Part shown: positions 1 through 5,829 of the stretch, in pieces | How positions within the stretch are numbered: position 1 is the stretch's first letter | Layout: the number at the start of each line of letters is the position of its first letter | The notes under the pieces: generated by a model | The model's database searches: none | Told to the model about the DNA's origin: nothing | Seen by the model: the letters and a program-made list of their open reading frames with translations, nothing else | Translations under genes and position numbers: made by a program | From: a virus | Lineage: Duplodnaviria; Heunggongvirae; Uroviricota; Caudoviricetes | Virus record (IMG/VR): IMGVR_UViG_2778261535_000001 | Coordinates: 1-7,239 of that record | Reading direction: 5' to 3' (one strand) | Length of the DNA: 7,239 bases

Positions 1-828
1 ATTAACGTCCCATGCAGGTCGCTTGCTTGTAACTAGTTCGCCATTAACAGGAATGACTTTTCCTTCGACCAACCATTTCCCGTTAATATAGGTATTCCTG
101 AAAAACGTTCTGGAGGTAAAATAAGTTTTACCCTGCATATCAATAATTCTAGATGAAATAGCAGCCTCAAGTGATTCAAAAGCTAAAGAATCATTTGTAA
201 CACCATCACCTACAGCACCAAAATCTTTAGGGCTAACTGTGTCACGCATCTTATCCTGGAACGTTCTGTATACTGCTCCAGAACCATACTGAATAAACCA
301 ACCAAAACCACCAACAACTCCAGCGATTGCAGCATCGACATAATTACGCATTGAGCGATTATTTACAGCATCCTGCTCAAGTGATGGATCTGCAAGGTTA
401 GAAATTTTGTTTTGCTTTGCATCGTAATATTTTGCAAGCAAAGATGGTTTCATCAATGCGCGTCTGAACCACCCAAAACATTGCTGGATCAGCATCGTCA
501 GGTAGTCAAAGGCATCTTCATGCACTTCGGGGAAAAACTTTCCCTGATTGCGGAGGTCTGTCTCCTGCACTACATCAAGCACACGATCTATCGTAATTAG
601 CCAGCCAACAGCAAGCGGCGACGGAAGAACCACAGAACCGCCACTATAAGTGCCCGCCCCTGTTACCGTATAACCGGTATCCAGAACCAATTCTGTTACG
701 TTCCCGTTCAAGTCAGACACCTGAACAACCAGGTCGGATTTTTTGAAAATACGGAAGGTATACGGAAATGATGTCGTAACGCCGTTACCGGTGTATTCGT
801 TGTGGTCAACTTCGGTTGAGACCGTCAT
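1..828 (-). CDS. Tailspike / tail fibre protein, N-terminal 276 codons (gene continues beyond window start)
   Basis: Not in the ORF track because no stop lies in the window; hand translation of the minus strand from ATG 828..826 is open for 276 codons down to position 1. RBS GGAGA sits 6-7 nt upstream (plus 836..840). N-terminus MTVSTEVDHNEYTGNGVTTSFPYTFRIFKKSDLVVQV fits the pattern of the T7 gp17-type particle-binding domain (Y-x2-[DN]G-x4-F-x3-F ... VV). A DAVNNRSMRNYVD motif follows, then SPKDFGAVGDGVTNDSLAFESLEAAI, typical of the first rung of a pectate-lyase-like beta-helix receptor-binding or depolymerase domain. Confidence 0.75.
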   Translation of the reverse strand, partial: MTVSTEVDHNEYTGNGVTTSFPYTFRIFKKSDLVVQVSDLNGNVTELVLDTGYTVTGAGTYSGGSVVLPSPLAVGWLITIDRVLDVVQETDLRNQGKFFPEVHEDAFDYLTMLIQQCFGWFRRALMKPSLLAKYYDAKQNKISNLADPSLEQDAVNNRSMRNYVDAAIAGVVGGFGWFIQYGSGAVYRTFQDKMRDTVSPKDFGAVGDGVTNDSLAFESLEAAISSRIIDMQGKTYFTSRTFFRNTYINGKWLVEGKVIPVNGELVTSKRPAWDVN

Positions 829-931: not shown

Positions 932-948
932 ATTACCTTTCAGGTAAT
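932..948. promoter_or_regulatory. Operator-like 17-bp palindrome, site A (ATTACCTTTCAGGTAAT)
   Basis: Perfect 7-bp inverted arms ATTACCT / AGGTAAT around a 3-bp centre. Lies in the divergent intergenic region between the tailspike start (828) and the small + gene (1024). Near-identical copies at 2051..2067 and 2144..2160; an isolated left half-site ATTACCT at 882..888. Confidence 0.5.
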
Positions 949-985
949 TTGCAAAACGTGCTGGATAGCAAACAAATTATTTGAT

Positions 986-1003
986 ACTGTATAAATATAC
1001 AGT
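986..1003. promoter_or_regulatory. LexA (SOS) box overlapping a candidate promoter
   Basis: ACTGTATAAATATACAGT contains a perfect CTGT-N8-ACAG core (987..1002) with an AT-rich centre, matching the enterobacterial LexA consensus TACTGTATATATATACAGTA. A -35-like TTGATA (981..986) abuts it and a weak -10 TATTGC (1004..1009) follows at 17-nt spacing. The box is about 20 nt upstream of the start codon at 1024. Confidence 0.7.
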
Positions 1004-1023
1004 TATTGCATGGAGAAGATAAG

Positions 1024-1281
1024 ATGCAGCAGTATCACTATCCACTGGAAGACGGATTTACCGAAAGGATTCACACGCCGGGAGGCGTCAGATCACTGGT
1101 GGAGGGATCGCACTTGATGAAATTACTCCGGGATCTCGATAAGGATGGATTTAATGTCGATGGCCCACTTGCCGAACTGACTGCACTGATTAACTACGTC
1201 ACCAGCTCACAGATGTCTATGCAGGATCTGCAAACACATCTCGACTATTGTGCCGAACAACTACGAAAACAAACCACATAA
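1024..1281 (+). CDS. Small antirepressor-like protein (85 aa), stand-alone paralogue of the Ant C-terminal domain
   Basis: ATG at 1024 with RBS GGAG (1012..1015) 8 nt upstream; the ORF track's TTG at 1006 is judged a less likely start. Stop TAA at 1279..1281. Residues ~17-80 (HTPGGVRSLVEGSHLMKLLRDLDKDGFNVDGPLAELTALINYV...DLQTHLDY) align with the C-terminus of the 2429..3139 protein (HSPSGVLGLTESSLLMNLLNQLQEDGHDVSGAAAELTTMFCYI...DIQTHAEY) at roughly 40-45% identity by eye. Confidence 0.65.
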   Translation: MQQYHYPLEDGFTERIHTPGGVRSLVEGSHLMKLLRDLDKDGFNVDGPLAELTALINYVTSSQMSMQDLQTHLDYCAEQLRKQTT

Positions 1282-1303
1282 AGAAAAGGCCGCAAGAGCG
1301 GCC
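1275..1303. terminator. Bidirectional intrinsic terminator between convergent genes
   Basis: Perfect hairpin GGCCGC-AAGA-GCGGCC at 1288..1303. On the minus strand it is followed by TTTTCTTTATG (complement of 1275..1287); on the plus strand by the moderately T-rich TATCGTTTCGCTTTG. It sits between the + stop (1281) and the - stop (1303..1305). Confidence 0.55.
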
Positions 1304-2031
1304 TATCGTTTCGCTTTGTGCTCGTCCCAGCACGTTTTGCACCATGCCATTAAGCCATCCGCATTTTGATTATTAGGGTAAAAACTGGTTCGTTTTCTGC
1401 GGACATTACAAATTGGGCACCACTTCATATGGCGTGTATTCTTTGGGCCATCGAGACACCTTGCACACCACTTAGTCAATCCATCTGGATTTTTTGACGA
1501 TTTCCTGAATTTTTCATATGGAAGGTTTATTCTGCATCGCAAACACTGCTTGCGGGCACTTGAAACTTCGTTAGCTGATTCTTCTTTTGACGGCGATACA
1601 GAAGGTATTCTTGCTGGCTCTGATACTGCCTGAGGTGCTTTTTTAGGTGACTGAGACGATATGTCATCACCAGGGAATCTGTCATGATATGCCGGACGCG
1701 TTGACACTCCAGGTGGAAGCTCTGCTGTAAATGGCTTTGGCTGAATCAGCGCCCTCTCTTTTGCTGACTCCTGCTGTTTATAATATGTCTGGATTACCGA
1801 TATATCATAAGCAGGATGTACAGAAATATCCGGCGCATTACCTCCAGTTTTTTGAAACTGAGTGGAGGTGTGGTCTATCACCTGTGTACGATTAATCGTT
1901 ATTTCTCCATCTTCGGTCTTTATCGTTTTGCGATGATTAACGACTGTGCGATCAGAGACCTTAGTCCTGTTCTGGTTGATAACGTAAATAATCACCGTAA
2001 CAACACCAACAACTATCCAGAAAACTTCCAT
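1303..2031 (-). CDS. Membrane-anchored protein with two tandem C4 zinc ribbons (242 aa), function unknown
   Basis: ATG at 2031 with RBS GAGGAAAA upstream; stop TAG at 1303..1305. One N-terminal hydrophobic helix (FWIVVGVVTVIIYVI) followed by a cluster of basic residues, which by the positive-inside rule puts the C-terminus in the cytoplasm. A long Ser/Pro/Lys/Glu-rich low-complexity linker follows. The basic C-terminal ~80 aa carry two repeats of C-x2-C-x22-C-x2-C, each with DGLxxWCxxC (CLRC...NPDGLTKWCARC and CPIC...NADGLMAWCKTC). The gene looks AT-richer than its neighbours by eye. Confidence 0.7.
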   Translation of the reverse strand: MEVFWIVVGVVTVIIYVINQNRTKVSDRTVVNHRKTIKTEDGEITINRTQVIDHTSTQFQKTGGNAPDISVHPAYDISVIQTYYKQQESAKERALIQPKPFTAELPPGVSTRPAYHDRFPGDDISSQSPKKAPQAVSEPARIPSVSPSKEESANEVSSARKQCLRCRINLPYEKFRKSSKNPDGLTKWCARCLDGPKNTRHMKWCPICNVRRKRTSFYPNNQNADGLMAWCKTCWDEHKAKR

Positions 2032-2160: not shown

Positions 2161-2189
2161 TTTACATCGCACTCCTCTTGTGCCATAGT
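2161..2189 (+). promoter_or_regulatory. Candidate sigma70 promoter for the leader/ant transcript
   Basis: TTTACA (2161..2166), 17-nt spacer, CATAGT (2184..2189). Identified by eye only; the -10 is weak. Confidence 0.3.
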
Positions 2190-2193
2190 AATC

Positions 2194-2272
2194 GGGCACT
2201 GGCAAAATCCAGTGCCGGGATTGGCGTCCCGAGTTACTAAGTGGCGCATACCACGCCAGACGTGGTTTTTTT
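2194..2272 (+). ncRNA. Candidate structured leader or small RNA upstream of the antirepressor gene
   Basis: Perfect 8-bp hairpin GGCACTGG-CAAAAT-CCAGTGCC (2195..2216), a second small hairpin GGGA-TTGGCG-TCCC (2217..2230), then an intrinsic terminator. No credible ORF. The region also contains an approximately 19-bp imperfect direct copy (2236..2254) of the ant translation-initiation region (2409..2427). Confidence 0.3.
2250..2272 (+). terminator. Intrinsic terminator/attenuator within the ant leader
   Basis: GC-rich hairpin ACCACG-CCAGA-CGTGGT followed by a run of seven T (2266..2272). It is strand-specific: on the minus strand the U-tract would precede the stem. It lies 156 nt upstream of the ant start codon. 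Confidence 0.5.
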
Positions 2273-2428
2273 ATGCGTTAAGCACAGCTATATCCGAATT
2301 ATGGTGGGCTGGGCAGGGGTCCGAAAGGACGCCGGTACCACTTAGGCCGGTACGCCAACCTTGTCCAGTTCACCACCAGTAATTGGCGTTGCGGTGGTGA
2401 TTAAAATCACTAAGTGGAGATAACCACC

Positions 2429-3139
2429 ATGGCTAATGCTCAAACTGCCATCTTCAAATTTGAATCTGTTAACCCTATCCGTTCCATCATTATCGATGGC
2501 CAACCATGGTTTGTAGCCCAAGACGTTTGTAGTGCGCTGCGTATCCAAAACGTCACCCAAGCACTTGAAAAACTGGATGATGATGAAAGGTCTATGTTCA
2601 ACATAGGGCATGAACATCGTGCAATTTTTGACAGCCGAGTAAAAGAGATCAACATCATCTCCGAGTCAGGCCTCTACACACTGATCCTCCGCTGCCGCGA
2701 TGCAGTAACACCAGGCACTATCCCCTACCGCTTTCGTAAATGGGTTACAGGTGAGGTTCTTCCTCAGATCCGCCGCACCGGAAGTTACATTAAAAACTCG
2801 CTCCCGCAGGAAGAACGCATAAAGATGGTTGCCGACCAGGTAGCCAACGCCACAGCATCAGCAGTGATGCAGGCAATGAAGGTAGAGAACAAAACCTACA
2901 GCGCCCCACTGAAGCCCGGCTACCGCAGCCTGATTCATTCGCCGTCTGGTGTTCTCGGCCTGACGGAGAGCTCACTGCTGATGAATCTGCTGAACCAGTT
3001 ACAGGAAGACGGGCACGACGTATCGGGCGCGGCGGCGGAACTGACCACCATGTTCTGCTACATCGTCGGTGTGAGTAAATGCCTGCGTGATATCCAGACC
3101 CACGCGGAATACATCAACGACAAGGCAGGGTTCTTCTGA
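2429..3139 (+). CDS. BRO-N domain antirepressor (Ant-like), 236 aa
   Basis: ATG at 2429 with RBS GGAG (2416..2419) 9 nt upstream; the ORF track's GTG at 2414 is judged less likely. Stop TGA at 3137..3139. N-terminal half carries the hallmark BRO-N motifs (FKFESVNPIRSIIIDGQPWFVAQDVCSAL, ALEKLDDDE, ISESGLYTLIL, FRKWVTGEVLPQIRRTGSY). The C-terminal ~80 aa are homologous to the 85-aa protein at 1024..1281. Confidence 0.88.
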   Translation: MANAQTAIFKFESVNPIRSIIIDGQPWFVAQDVCSALRIQNVTQALEKLDDDERSMFNIGHEHRAIFDSRVKEINIISESGLYTLILRCRDAVTPGTIPYRFRKWVTGEVLPQIRRTGSYIKNSLPQEERIKMVADQVANATASAVMQAMKVENKTYSAPLKPGYRSLIHSPSGVLGLTESSLLMNLLNQLQEDGHDVSGAAAELTTMFCYIVGVSKCLRDIQTHAEYINDKAGFF

Positions 3140-3156: not shown

Positions 3157-3185
3157 CGTTAAAAACAAGGCCGCGAAAGCGGCCT
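3157..3185 (-). terminator. Intrinsic terminator for the minus-strand virion-gene transcript (also caps the + ant transcript)
   Basis: Perfect hairpin AGGCCGC-GAAA-GCGGCCT (3168..3185) with a GNRA-type loop. On the minus strand it is followed by TTGTTTTTAAC. Its stem is almost identical to the hairpin at 1288..1303. Confidence 0.55.
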
Positions 3186-3204: not shown

Positions 3205-3345
3205 TTATGACAAGCCTATGTACCCTGCTACACCAGATAATATCAAAATAACTGCAACAGCAAATTCGCCATCGTCAATGATACATTTACGGTTCATAAC
3301 GCCAAGTGCAACAAGCGCAAACACAACAAGAATAAAAGCAATCAT
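3205..3345 (-). CDS. Small hydrophobic protein, 46 aa, two predicted transmembrane helices (not in ORF track)
   Basis: Minus-strand ATG at 3345 preceded by AAGGAT, which overlaps the TAA stop (3355..3357) of the upstream 824-aa gene; stop TAA at 3205..3207. Hand translation MIAFILVVFALVALGVMNRKCIIDDGEFAVAVILILSGVAGYIGLS shows two hydrophobic segments split by a charged turn (NRKCIIDDGE). The terminator follows immediately. Confidence 0.4.
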   Translation of the reverse strand: MIAFILVVFALVALGVMNRKCIIDDGEFAVAVILILSGVAGYIGLS

Positions 3346-3354
3346 TTCTCATCC

Positions 3355-5829
3355 TTATTGCGGAGTGACATCCTGTGGTCGCCACCAGTATGTCTGGTTA
3401 AACTCTTTCTTCGAACGTTGCTCCATTTTACGCAAATAACCTGGTGAAAAATACTCCTGCATCTGGTTAAAGATCATGTGATCGAGAGCCGCCTTTAAGT
3501 ACCAGAGATTCGCACCTGGCATCAGACCTTTCCCCAGCTTAACCAGATCACCACCAGTCTGCTCATTCTTCCCTTCCACAGCATTTAACGGTATGCCCTG
3601 AGCAATCTTCACTACGTCATCAACCAGACCAGCTACCGGGCCAAGCATCGACGCCAGCGCGCCGCTTCCGTACCTAGTGTGATCTGACAATAAAAAGTCA
3701 CCGTAAAGGCCAAGACCACCACCTTTCAGTAGAGCACCAAGCCAAAATTTAGCAGCATCTTCTCCTGTCATCTCGCGAGGATTACGACCAGACGCAAGGT
3801 CGTTAAGTTGCTGCGACAAAGCGCCAAGAATGGTCGTACTGGCAATAAACGTCGCAATATATGCCGCACGCCCACCAGCAGACGGCATACCCATAGCGCG
3901 TGACCAGTGACGCATAACCACCGAGATAGGGAACGATTTAAACAGGAAAACACTTCTCGTTAATTCACCTTTCCATGTTCCACGCTGAATACCAGAACCG
4001 GTTATCAGTTGCTCACGTGCTCCCGGTGTAATAACAGCCATATCAACTTCTTCAGTTACGGCACCGAGCAGTTTACGCATTGCCTCAAATTTCACGCGTT
4101 CAGGCTCACCAAGATGTTTAACTGCTGAATCAGGGATACGCATAATGCTTTCCGGTGTCAGCATCGTATTATTACCGTTCCCCCAGTCCTCCTGTTGCGC
4201 CAGCTTCCATACGCTCCAGTCTGTGTCAGTAATCCCTTTGCTTTTCAGGATACGAAAATCAGAGTCATCGAGGCTACGAAGGTCTGGTGTCCGTGACACT
4301 ACTTCTCCCAGGCTTCCCATCATGGTTACGCCATAGGCGCGCTTGTGCGCATCTGACCATGCTGTAAGCCCACTGGCACGCATTACCGCCGTTGCCGCCC
4401 AACGAGACACTGACGGCCCCATATTATCCATCGCCCAGCGGTTAACGCTGCCAAGTAGAGATTCCATCGCCAGACCAGCGCGGCGCGCCCGCGCAAGTTC
4501 TGTACGGTTCGTTGGGTCCATAGCTTCAAGCTGGTTGCGGAATAACTGGTTCATTGGAAGGTTGGTCACCTTCGCAGACAGATACATGGTTCCAAGATCA
4601 GAGAACGATGATAGCAACGCGGATCCGAGTCTGCTGGCAACCAGCCAGTTGCGGATATTGTCAGACCATCGCGCGATGTGCGGATTCGCTACAGGCTGTG
4701 TCTTTCCGGAAATAAAGTTGTACAGATTCTCTGTGTTGTTCGCCAGCCGCTCGACTTTACCGGTTTTACTCGGGTTAGCTGTTGCCGTTTCTGCCTTCAC
4801 CTGATCAAGAAGAGAGCGGAAAACATGATCTGGGTTTGGGCCATATGTTTCCACCAGTGCAATATCTTTACTGATACCTTCCAGGTGACCGACCATGATT
4901 TCCCATAGAGAGCGATCGCCATAAAGTTGCTGATATTGCAGATAGGAATCTGCATCTTTGAAATGTATCTGTCGTGATGCATTACCACGGTTAGCACGTG
5001 CGCCGGAAATTCGCATTCCGGTATCAGTAAGCTTATTCAGCCCACCAGTAGCGATCGTGTTATAAGCCTCTCCAAGAAATGCAGACAACTCGGCATCGTT
5101 CATCAGTTGTCCATCGGCTCGGATATAATATTTGCGATCCAGCTTACCTATAACATCGCTAACCCACTTATCCTTTGATACCGCCCCAACCTTTTCCATA
5201 GAATGATGTTGAGGGATCCCCCAGTTTTCGAGATAGCCAATGTCCCCACCAGCATCATTAAACCGGCGGCGCAGCAGCTCTGTAACTTCTCTCCACGCCT
5301 TAGCACCTTTTCTTGCTTTAGCATTGCCAGTATTTTGCCCCCGCATTTCATATACCAGGTCACGTACGCCCGCTTCATCTTCAAACAGACCAAAAAAGCG
5401 AGGATCAACTGCTTCGAATGCCTCCTGCAATTGACTCAATGCATAATCACGAGTGGCTTTTGTTCTGGACTCAACAGAGAGGAAATTCGATTTACCGTCT
5501 GCATTAAAAGCAATAGTACGGTTAAGAGCGCCAAGTTTCCCATCAGCCCCTTGATAGCTATTGATAAATTTATCCAATCTCTGACGTGCGGCTATAGTGA
5601 GGGCCACACGACGTTTCTTTAATGCCGCTTCTCGCTGTAATTCTTCAGATGCCAATTGTGCTGCACGATACAACCGCTCTGATTCGGAAAGTTGTCGCCA
5701 CGACATCGGGTCATCACGAGCAATGGAGCGCATATTTCGATAAATGCGGTCTTCAATGTTCTGTATTTCTCGCGCCGTTAACGTGCGCTGCGCCGCCTGC
5801 TGGACCGCTTGTATACATTCCTGTCTCAT
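3355..5829 (-). CDS. Large virion-associated protein, 824 aa (putative internal virion / DNA-ejection protein)
   Basis: Long ORF with ATG at 5829 and RBS GAGAGG 9 nt upstream; it starts 5 nt after the stop of the upstream gene, so the two are translationally coupled. It lies just upstream of the tailspike region, where podoviruses such as P22 and T7 encode ejection or core proteins. Gly-rich C-terminal segment. No motif I can assign with certainty; the function is by position and size only. Confidence 0.45.
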   Translation of the reverse strand: MRQECIQAVQQAAQRTLTAREIQNIEDRIYRNMRSIARDDPMSWRQLSESERLYRAAQLASEELQREAALKKRRVALTIAARQRLDKFINSYQGADGKLGALNRTIAFNADGKSNFLSVESRTKATRDYALSQLQEAFEAVDPRFFGLFEDEAGVRDLVYEMRGQNTGNAKARKGAKAWREVTELLRRRFNDAGGDIGYLENWGIPQHHSMEKVGAVSKDKWVSDVIGKLDRKYYIRADGQLMNDAELSAFLGEAYNTIATGGLNKLTDTGMRISGARANRGNASRQIHFKDADSYLQYQQLYGDRSLWEIMVGHLEGISKDIALVETYGPNPDHVFRSLLDQVKAETATANPSKTGKVERLANNTENLYNFISGKTQPVANPHIARWSDNIRNWLVASRLGSALLSSFSDLGTMYLSAKVTNLPMNQLFRNQLEAMDPTNRTELARARRAGLAMESLLGSVNRWAMDNMGPSVSRWAATAVMRASGLTAWSDAHKRAYGVTMMGSLGEVVSRTPDLRSLDDSDFRILKSKGITDTDWSVWKLAQQEDWGNGNNTMLTPESIMRIPDSAVKHLGEPERVKFEAMRKLLGAVTEEVDMAVITPGAREQLITGSGIQRGTWKGELTRSVFLFKSFPISVVMRHWSRAMGMPSAGGRAAYIATFIASTTILGALSQQLNDLASGRNPREMTGEDAAKFWLGALLKGGGLGLYGDFLLSDHTRYGSGALASMLGPVAGLVDDVVKIAQGIPLNAVEGKNEQTGGDLVKLGKGLMPGANLWYLKAALDHMIFNQMQEYFSPGYLRKMEQRSKKEFNQTYWWRPQDVTPQ

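Follow-up and report, generated by a model that had tools for sequence, protein, structure and literature searches.

A probable LexA-controlled antirepressor gene, the orthologue of SPC32H ant, in an epsilon15-like prophage of Escherichia coli

A small gene of an epsilon15-like (Uetakevirus) prophage of E. coli, encoding a protein of 85 amino acids, is very probably the LexA-repressed SOS antirepressor gene ant, whose product would inactivate the prophage repressor Rep. It was found in a stretch of viral DNA of 7,239 bp (the whole of the sequence analyzed, called here the window), which matches, at 95-99% identity, the late-region/tailspike junction in E. coli phages and prophages of the epsilon15-like genus Uetakevirus, such as TL-2011b, phiV10 and ZX5. 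The initial annotation had proposed that the locus links prophage induction to the SOS response without RecA-mediated cleavage of the repressor. This core reading is supported, because the gene is orthologous to the ant of the Ant/Rep system of phage SPC32H, which has been characterized both experimentally and structurally; the Rep proteins concerned also carry no S24 peptidase domain. The LexA-controlled Ant system as such is already known, since it was published in 2013 (J Virol 87:11775) and crystallized in 2016 (PNAS 113:E2480; PDB 5D50 and 5D4Z). The features of the window that surround the gene are as follows.

1-828, minus strand: tailspike gene, N-terminal 276 codons
932-948, no strand assigned: palindrome ATTACCTTTCAGGTAAT, probable Rep operator, 37 nt upstream of the LexA box
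962-990, plus strand: candidate ant promoter, with -35 TGGATA at 962-967, a 17-nt spacer and -10 TACTGT at 985-990
985-1004, no strand assigned: LexA (SOS) box TACTGTATAAATATACAGTT, with the core CTGT-N8-ACAG at 987-1002
1012-1015, plus strand: ribosome-binding site GGAG, 8 nt before the ATG and kept in eight of eight relatives
1024-1281, plus strand: ant, 85-aa antirepressor orthologous to SPC32H Ant, from ATG 1024 to TAA 1281
1287-1304, no strand assigned: GC-rich hairpin, bidirectional terminator for ant and the 242-aa gene
2051-2067 and 2144-2160, no strand assigned: two operator-like palindromes, lying where the 242-aa gene and the isrK/C4/BRO-N unit diverge
3205-3345, minus strand: gene for a 46-aa membrane protein
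3355-5829, minus strand: gene for an 824-aa virion protein
5835 to the end of the window, minus strand: gene for another virion protein, partial

On the evidence of its sequence and genomic position, the 85-aa protein is the syntenic orthologue of SPC32H Ant. Searching the PDB with it returned one matching sequence, chain E of entry 5D50 (“Anti-repressor protein,” 86 aa; E=1.3e-47), with residues 2-85 aligned to residues 3-86 and 74 of the 84 positions identical (88%). The protein also matches phrog_450 (E=1.4e-47), as does the BRO-N protein encoded further along the window. In Pfam and NCBIfam no family rose above the cut-off for the 85-aa protein, the only signals being sub-threshold noise (DUF724 and UpsF). 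The SPC32H genome (KC911856) has an annotated ant in the same position and orientation as in the window, and in KC911856, AY150271 and JQ011317 alike the locus lies on the opposite strand, between the tailspike and internal virion protein genes. In SPC32H as here, ant points away from the tailspike gene and toward the virion protein genes, and the two phages also share the placement of the box, the ribosome-binding site and the start codon. The gene is monocistronic, being the only one between the LexA box and the terminator. A TTG start at position 1006, which would give a protein of 91 aa, was set aside; both the SPC32H annotation and the PDB chain start elsewhere.

When 50,697 phage records were searched by tblastn with the 85-aa protein, matches were confined to 35 records, which belong to phages of E. 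coli, Salmonella, Enterobacter and Klebsiella and all encode Rep. A word-indexed protein search gave 132 proteins, all of them close stand-alone homologues and none a fusion; among the 120 listed, lengths run from 53 to 142 aa. Among 5,426 complete E. coli genomes the ant locus was seen in 529, its product being labelled “hypothetical protein” throughout, a label that sets the E. coli copy apart from the SPC32H gene. Every sequence-testable mark of the SPC32H-type Ant family (homology, synteny, LexA box and Rep) was thus found. The main value of the analysis accordingly lies in the annotation of a common E. coli locus rather than in any new mechanism.

The control element was examined in the same manner. 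The initial annotation had pointed to a perfect CTGT-N8-ACAG LexA core directly upstream of the 85-aa gene, and this core is indeed found at 987-1002, as a single occurrence within the 7,239-bp window. The core by itself is weak evidence: at least one copy occurs in 20 of 200 shuffled sequences (10%). The complete 20-mer is more discriminating. TACTGTATAAATATACAGTT agrees with the E. coli SOS box consensus TACTGTATATATATACAGTA at 18 of 20 positions, with two mismatches, and none of the 200 shuffles contained a match to the consensus with three mismatches or fewer. Scoring with a LexA position weight matrix, which the initial annotation had suggested, leads to the same result. With an approximate matrix made from 21 published E. 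coli SOS boxes, TACTGTATAAATATACAGTT scores 27.2 bits, higher than all 21 training sites, while the runner-up in the window reaches 7.6 bits and the best site in 300 shuffles 17.2 bits. The box ends at 1004, leaving a gap of 19 nt before the ATG at 1024. A role for it in expression of the divergent tailspike gene was rejected, because it lies 157 nt from the tailspike start codon as against 19 nt from that of ant, and because the genetics of SPC32H link it to ant.

Comparison with relatives points in the same direction. The regions upstream of ant were aligned for eight Uetakevirus genomes, from phages of E. coli, Salmonella, Enterobacter and Klebsiella, and the box of the window coincides exactly with that of SPC32H. 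The box arms, TACTGTAT and ATACAGT, are invariant in six of the eight regions (the E. coli, Salmonella and Enterobacter phages), while the 4-nt center varies among these six (AAAT, TTTA, GTTT, AAGC, ATAT), reading AAAT here and GTTT in SPC32H. Fixed arms around a free center are the pattern expected of a LexA site. The left arm reads ATGT, not CTGT, in the two phages of Klebsiella. Within the aligned region one base change, C>A at the equivalent of window position 1000, separates SPC32H from its sister phage SPC32N, a clear-plaque variant, and this change destroys the right ACAG arm of the box. The two phages are said to differ by only two nucleotides genome-wide, and the LexA-box mutation reportedly results in constitutive Ant and a virulent-like phage.

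These observations bear on the idea that LexA does not use the palindrome at all, the sequence being a chance or relic A+T-rich element and ant being governed by the Rep operator alone or by antisense late-gene transcription. In favor of this are the frequency of the bare core in shuffled DNA, the presence of a Rep-operator-like palindrome in the same intergenic region, and a consensus scan that called no promoter. It must however be set against a 20-mer that outscores each of the 21 E. coli SOS boxes in the matrix, against arms conserved around a variable center in phages of three host genera, and against the single-base change in the box that separates SPC32N from SPC32H. LexA control has also been assigned in published work: PMC7380047 counts Kim & Ryu 2013 among the cases in which self-cleavage of LexA lets an antirepressor be made, one that inhibits the repressor through protein-protein interaction. 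We consider it extremely improbable that the palindrome is a bystander, and the reading as a LexA box is retained.

A candidate promoter was picked out by conservation. TGGATA/TACTGT is the only sigma70-like pair kept in six phages of E. coli, Salmonella and Enterobacter, and from this we infer that it is the promoter of ant and that it overlaps the LexA box. With its -10 at 985-990, the hexamer TACTGT would itself constitute the left arm of the box. The same arrangement is found at p95 of coliphage 186, whose annotated -10, TACTGT, forms the left arm of a LexA box; the distance from the end of that box to the tum start codon is 18 nt, compared with 19 nt to the ATG here. A strict scan for consensus promoters between 960 and 1020 found no sigma70 site. 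The candidate promoter of the initial annotation was not confirmed, given this empty scan and the failure of relatives to keep the pair TTGATA (981-986)/TATTGC. The latter was not adopted because its -10 lacks the final T, because transcription would start after the ribosome-binding site, and because it is not conserved.

A second palindrome lies close to the box. The motif ATTACCT-N3-AGGTAAT occurs three times in the window (932-948, 2051-2067 and 2144-2160), and none of 200 shuffles reaches four matches. In the GenBank record of epsilon15 the equivalent element upstream of gp19 is annotated “protein_bind: repressor,” similar palindromes flank rep and a cro-like gene in a related E. coli prophage, and an ATTACC-N5-GGTAAT palindrome upstream of ant is a further point shared with SPC32H. 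The palindromes are therefore best described as probable Rep operators. Since one of them is so near the LexA box, ant may be under the dual control of Rep and LexA.

As rep is absent from the 7.2-kb window, the partner repressor has to be deduced from relatives. A prophage of E. coli SY033, inserted between guaA and yfgI and 97.5% identical to the window, encodes a Rep homologue, and near-identical E. coli prophages thus resemble SPC32H in this respect too. The SY033 protein, an HTH protein of 194 aa, shows 43% identity to SPC32H Rep and matches chain A of PDB 5D50 (“Repressor”) with E=3.5e-42. No Peptidase_S24 domain was found in the Rep of either the SY033 prophage or SPC32H, which have HTH domains only, and this composition fits a repressor that would not be cleavable with the help of RecA. 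A tblastn search placed Rep in 37 phage records, and the 35 records with Ant all fall within that set. The Ant-positive records span four Rep sequence types. Between the E. coli and Salmonella groups, Rep identity is 49% over residues 1-91 and 40% over residues 92-198, as against 88% for Ant. The C-terminal part of Rep is reportedly the Ant-binding domain. With Ant 88% identical to its SPC32H counterpart but Rep only 43%, we infer, rather than carry over directly from SPC32H, that this Ant binds its own Rep, and binding to the cognate E. coli Rep is plausible.

This divergence leaves room for another reading, in which ant is SOS-induced but not directed against the resident Rep: its product would act in trans on other repressors, in a crosstalk like that of the Gifsy prophages, or have some other role, and the BRO-N protein would be the working antirepressor. 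Besides the contrast between the two identities, it can be noted that overexpression of the ZX5 BRO-N protein alone brought prophage counts down from 1e9 to 1e6 PFU/mL (PMC9782041), and that antirepressors can act on non-cognate repressors, as described in PMC3121763 (Lemire et al. 2011). However, Ant and Rep occur together in all 35 records across the four Rep types, and the E. coli and Salmonella groups share conserved operator palindromes and a conserved N-terminal domain of Rep. Only in phages with this Rep family, moreover, is the Ant-like domain found joined to BRO-N, which points to the domain as the Rep-targeting part. We regard a target other than the resident Rep as quite unlikely, and inactivation of Rep by Ant remains the preferred explanation.

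A model of induction can be proposed by analogy with SPC32H. In the lysogen, host LexA would sit on the box at 985-1004, and since the box covers the -10 and start region of the ant promoter, ant should be silent. After DNA damage, activated RecA would promote the self-cleavage of LexA, and ant would be transcribed. In SPC32H, Rep occupies DNA as a tetramer, which is broken up when an Ant tetramer binds two Rep dimers, according to the account in PMC9638917, citing Kim et al. 2016. If this holds in E. coli, Ant (a tetramer in the SPC32H structure) would bind Rep and convert the DNA-binding tetramer into dimers with poor DNA binding. The loss of Rep would then derepress the lytic promoters that carry ATTACC-N5-GGTAAT operators, leading to prophage induction. 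Rep itself, which has no LexA-like autocleavage domain, would play no self-cleaving part in this. Such prophages are therefore predicted to be induced by SOS-triggering antibiotics through antirepression and not through repressor cleavage. The prophages concerned include relatives of phiV10, which modifies the O157 antigen, and of TL-2011b, from an O103:H25 outbreak strain.

The logic of the locus had initially been likened to that of Tum of coliphage 186 and of the Gifsy antirepressors. The functional side of this comparison holds, as all are LexA-controlled antirepressors, but kinship with Tum does not. Tum, like the Ant proposed here, is LexA-repressed and blocks a repressor (CI) that is non-cleavable. 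It differs in its size (146 aa), its DinI-like C-terminal half and its origin in a P2-like myovirus. In a single BLASTP comparison, Tum and the 85-aa protein showed no detectable similarity (16.5 bits, E=0.07), and no DinI-type Pfam match was found in the 85-aa protein. The Gifsy proteins GfoA, GftA and GfhA are likewise small, LexA-controlled and encoded far from the immunity region, and inactivate non-cleavable repressors by binding them. Yet the Gifsy antirepressor is the second gene of a dinI-antirepressor-irsA operon, as described in PMC3121763, whereas ant stands alone and the window contains no homologue of dinI or irsA, and the Gifsy targets are different repressors, the DicA-like GfoR/GtgR. 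Tum is thus only a functional analogue, and so, judging from the operon layout, are probably the Gifsy antirepressors. The closest known system is SPC32H Ant, which the initial annotation had not named.

Where the window departs most clearly from SPC32H, apart from its E. coli host and its diverged Rep, is in a 1.9-kb insertion after ant that contains a C4-controlled BRO-N gene with a fused Ant domain. Its features are as follows.

1279-1304 (left copy) and 3160-3185 (right copy), no strand assigned: terminator repeat, 26-nt direct repeat with 85% identity
1303-2031, minus strand: 242-aa gene, first in the inserted module, phrog_6762, absent from SPC32H
2183-2272, plus strand: c4-a1b1 target/isrK-like RNA with terminator (Rfam)
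2297-2380, plus strand: C4-type antisense RNA (Rfam RF01695, 66 bits, gathering score 45)
2383-2419, plus strand: a2/b2 targets of the C4 RNA, with b2 (2410-2417) overlapping the BRO-N Shine-Dalgarno GGAG (2416-2419)
2429-3139, plus strand: gene for the 236-aa BRO-N::Ant-domain protein, with Pfam Bro-N at residues 17-112 (E=1e-19)
2891-3121, plus strand: Ant-like domain of the BRO-N protein (residues 155-231), matching the whole Ant chain 5D50_E (E=1.7e-13)
3168-3185: terminator of the BRO-N gene

The sequence to the right of position 3185 matches the SPC32H sequence that follows the ant terminator, which marks the end of the insertion; the segment inserted relative to SPC32H therefore comprises the 242-aa gene, the RNA module and the gene for the BRO-N protein. 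Residues 155-228 of the BRO-N protein are 42% identical to the 85-aa protein (E=1e-15), in agreement with the initial annotation, which had described the small product as a stand-alone version of the C-terminal domain of its BRO-N neighbor. The ANT/KilAC domain of P22-type Ant (Pfam PF03374) was found in neither the 236-aa nor the 85-aa protein, Bro-N being the only Pfam domain above the cut-off, in the former. Judging from these matches, the shared C-terminal domain is the SPC32H-Ant fold and not Pfam ANT/KilAC.

The RNA module recalls the c4-icd-ant region of the P1/P7 immI system and the isrK region of Gifsy-1, and the likeness concerns the BRO-N gene only: the a1b1/isrK element, the C4 RNA, the a2b2 targets at the ribosome-binding site and the antirepressor gene follow one another. 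The first element scores 67.2 bits with the Rfam isrK model (2196-2272; gathering score 50) and 44.3 bits with c4-a1b1 (gathering score 46.7). The C4 loops CCACTTAG and ACGCCAA show exact complementarity of 7-8 nt both to upstream sites, at 2237-2244 and 2221-2227, and to downstream ones, at 2410-2417 and 2383-2389. Unlike P1 immI, the window has no icd-like leader ORF between the end of C4 (2380) and the ATG at 2429, since b2 overlaps the Shine-Dalgarno sequence of the antirepressor gene itself. A further difference from immI is that the antirepressor here is a BRO-N protein with a C-terminal domain like SPC32H Ant, encoded in the late region of a podovirus. No LexA core was found upstream of the BRO-N gene in the window-wide scan.

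How the two copies of the domain arose can be judged from their distribution. The initial annotation had supposed that the small effector came from a BRO-N Ant scaffold by excision. That both proteins share the domain at 42% identity would be compatible with such an excision, as would the occurrence of the same C-terminal domain in several PHROG “anti-repressor” families (phrog_1760 and phrog_130). But the small ant is found at a fixed syntenic position in 35 of 35 records, in all the members of the genus examined, including the Salmonella members that have no BRO-N fusion. Full-length matches to the fusion are limited to 18 phage records, from E. coli, Enterobacter and Klebsiella, all with Ant and Rep; elsewhere, as in N15 and other phages, the match is restricted to the Bro-N part. 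Here, moreover, the fusion gene lies inside the insertion, with duplicated copies of the terminator at its bounds. A small ant that is universal and a fusion that is both restricted and inserted argue against excision from BRO-N, which we hold to be unlikely. More economically, a generic BRO-N gene may have acquired a copy of the resident Ant domain.

The pairing of a LexA-controlled Ant with a C4-controlled BRO-N::Ant-domain paralogue is the possible remaining novelty of the locus. We suggest tentatively, as something possible rather than probable, that the two form a two-input antirepression switch acting on one repressor, with the ancestral small Ant released by cleavage of LexA on DNA damage and the BRO-N::Ant protein, with its diverged copy of the domain, held back by C4 and the Rep operators. 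In such a switch, the BRO-N::Ant protein could provide an input for anti-immunity or superinfection, or could amplify the response when Rep begins to fail. The combination was apparently built by domain duplication and by insertion at the ant terminator. Nowhere in the literature searched was a podovirus described that combines an SPC32H-type Ant with a P1 immI-type module. For E. coli members of the group, one functional paper was found, on ZX5 (PMC9782041); it tested the BRO-N protein, and LexA and the small gene go unmentioned in it; the protein concerned, ZX5 ORF4, is 80% identical to the BRO-N protein of the window.

The remaining gene of the insertion encodes the 242-aa protein, which has a hydrophobic helix at its N-terminus and Cys-rich zinc-ribbon repeats toward its C-terminus, and shows weak matches to endonuclease VII/Lar-like proteins and to Stc1.

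The palindrome ATTACCT-N3-AGGTAAT recurs in intergenic control regions of the window, and also at positions 11819, 12531 and 12916 of L006, a related E. coli prophage, and at position 40532 of L005. The same element carries a repressor-binding site annotation in the epsilon15 record, and the palindromes are probably operators for the phage repressor Rep. If so, ant (the 85-aa antirepressor gene) and the BRO-N unit would also be under Rep control. The features discussed here are as follows.

Features of the window (coordinates, strand where assigned, description)
1-828, minus strand: N-terminal part of the tailspike, the gene being cut by the window edge
880-910 (columns 50-80 of alignment A3, the ant upstream regions of Uetakevirus phages): invariant block TTCTATTACC...AACC..ATATG.AT in the tailspike-ant intergenic region
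932-948, 2051-2067 and 2144-2160: ATTACCT-N3-AGGTAAT palindromes
950-964 and 1327-1341: perfect 15-nt inverted repeat, TGCAAAACGTGCTGG / CCAGCACGTTTTGCA, flanking the ant cassette on both sides
1279-1304 and 3160-3185: 26-nt direct repeat, 85% identical, of a GC-hairpin terminator
1303-2031, minus strand: gene for a 242-aa protein (phrog_6762)
2196-2272: isrK-like RNA, including its terminator, upstream of the BRO-N gene
2297-2380: C4 antisense RNA, upstream of the BRO-N gene
2410-2417: b2 target site, overlapping the Shine-Dalgarno sequence of the BRO-N gene

When SPC32H is taken as the reference, the 26-nt terminator repeats coincide with both borders of a 1.9-kb insertion, which suggests that recombination at the ant 3' end or at the terminator gave rise to it. 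The insertion contains the 242-aa gene, isrK/C4 and the BRO-N gene. For the 15-nt inverted repeat, a rough estimate gives ~0.003 occurrences by chance in this 2.6-kb region. Its left arm shares bases with GCTGGATAG, a motif conserved upstream of ant, and its right arm encodes CKTCW within the 242-aa ORF.

The Salmonella relatives lack the 242-aa gene, which points away from the C4/BRO-N unit as one half of a divergent pair. The protein it encodes has a hydrophobic helix at the N-terminus and Cys-rich zinc-ribbon repeats at the C-terminus, and its matches (endonuclease VII, Lar-like and Stc1) are all weak. Upstream of the BRO-N gene, positions 2183-2428 hold an antisense RNA module that resembles P1 immI in its layout and has its a/b target sites in duplicate, but unlike immI it has no icd-like leader ORF.

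When the E. coli phages are compared with those of Salmonella, Ant (1024-1281) is 88% identical, far more conserved than its presumed target Rep (L006:11891-12475), which is only 43% identical (49% in the N-terminal part and 40% in the C-terminal part). Either a small conserved patch forms the Ant-Rep interface, or Ant tolerates diverse Reps (crosstalk). Among complete E. coli genomes, 529 of 5,426 carry the ant locus with its LexA box, and there ant is annotated as a "hypothetical protein." The only functional work found on an E. coli member, the study of ZX5 (PMC9782041), tested the BRO-N protein and mentions neither LexA nor the small ant.

Upstream of ant, the 880-910 block is invariant in all eight phages aligned, and comprises an operator half-site and a conserved motif that may be an IHF site or the promoter of the tailspike gene. 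In epsilon15, an IHF site is annotated directly downstream of the equivalent block, adjoining the repressor palindrome. The tailspike has an N-terminal head-binding part that is conserved with the Uetakevirus phages and, from around residue 200 onwards, continues as an endosialidase-like N-terminal extension, which hints at K1-capsule specificity, and the tailspikes of relatives are annotated with an endosialidase beta-propeller.
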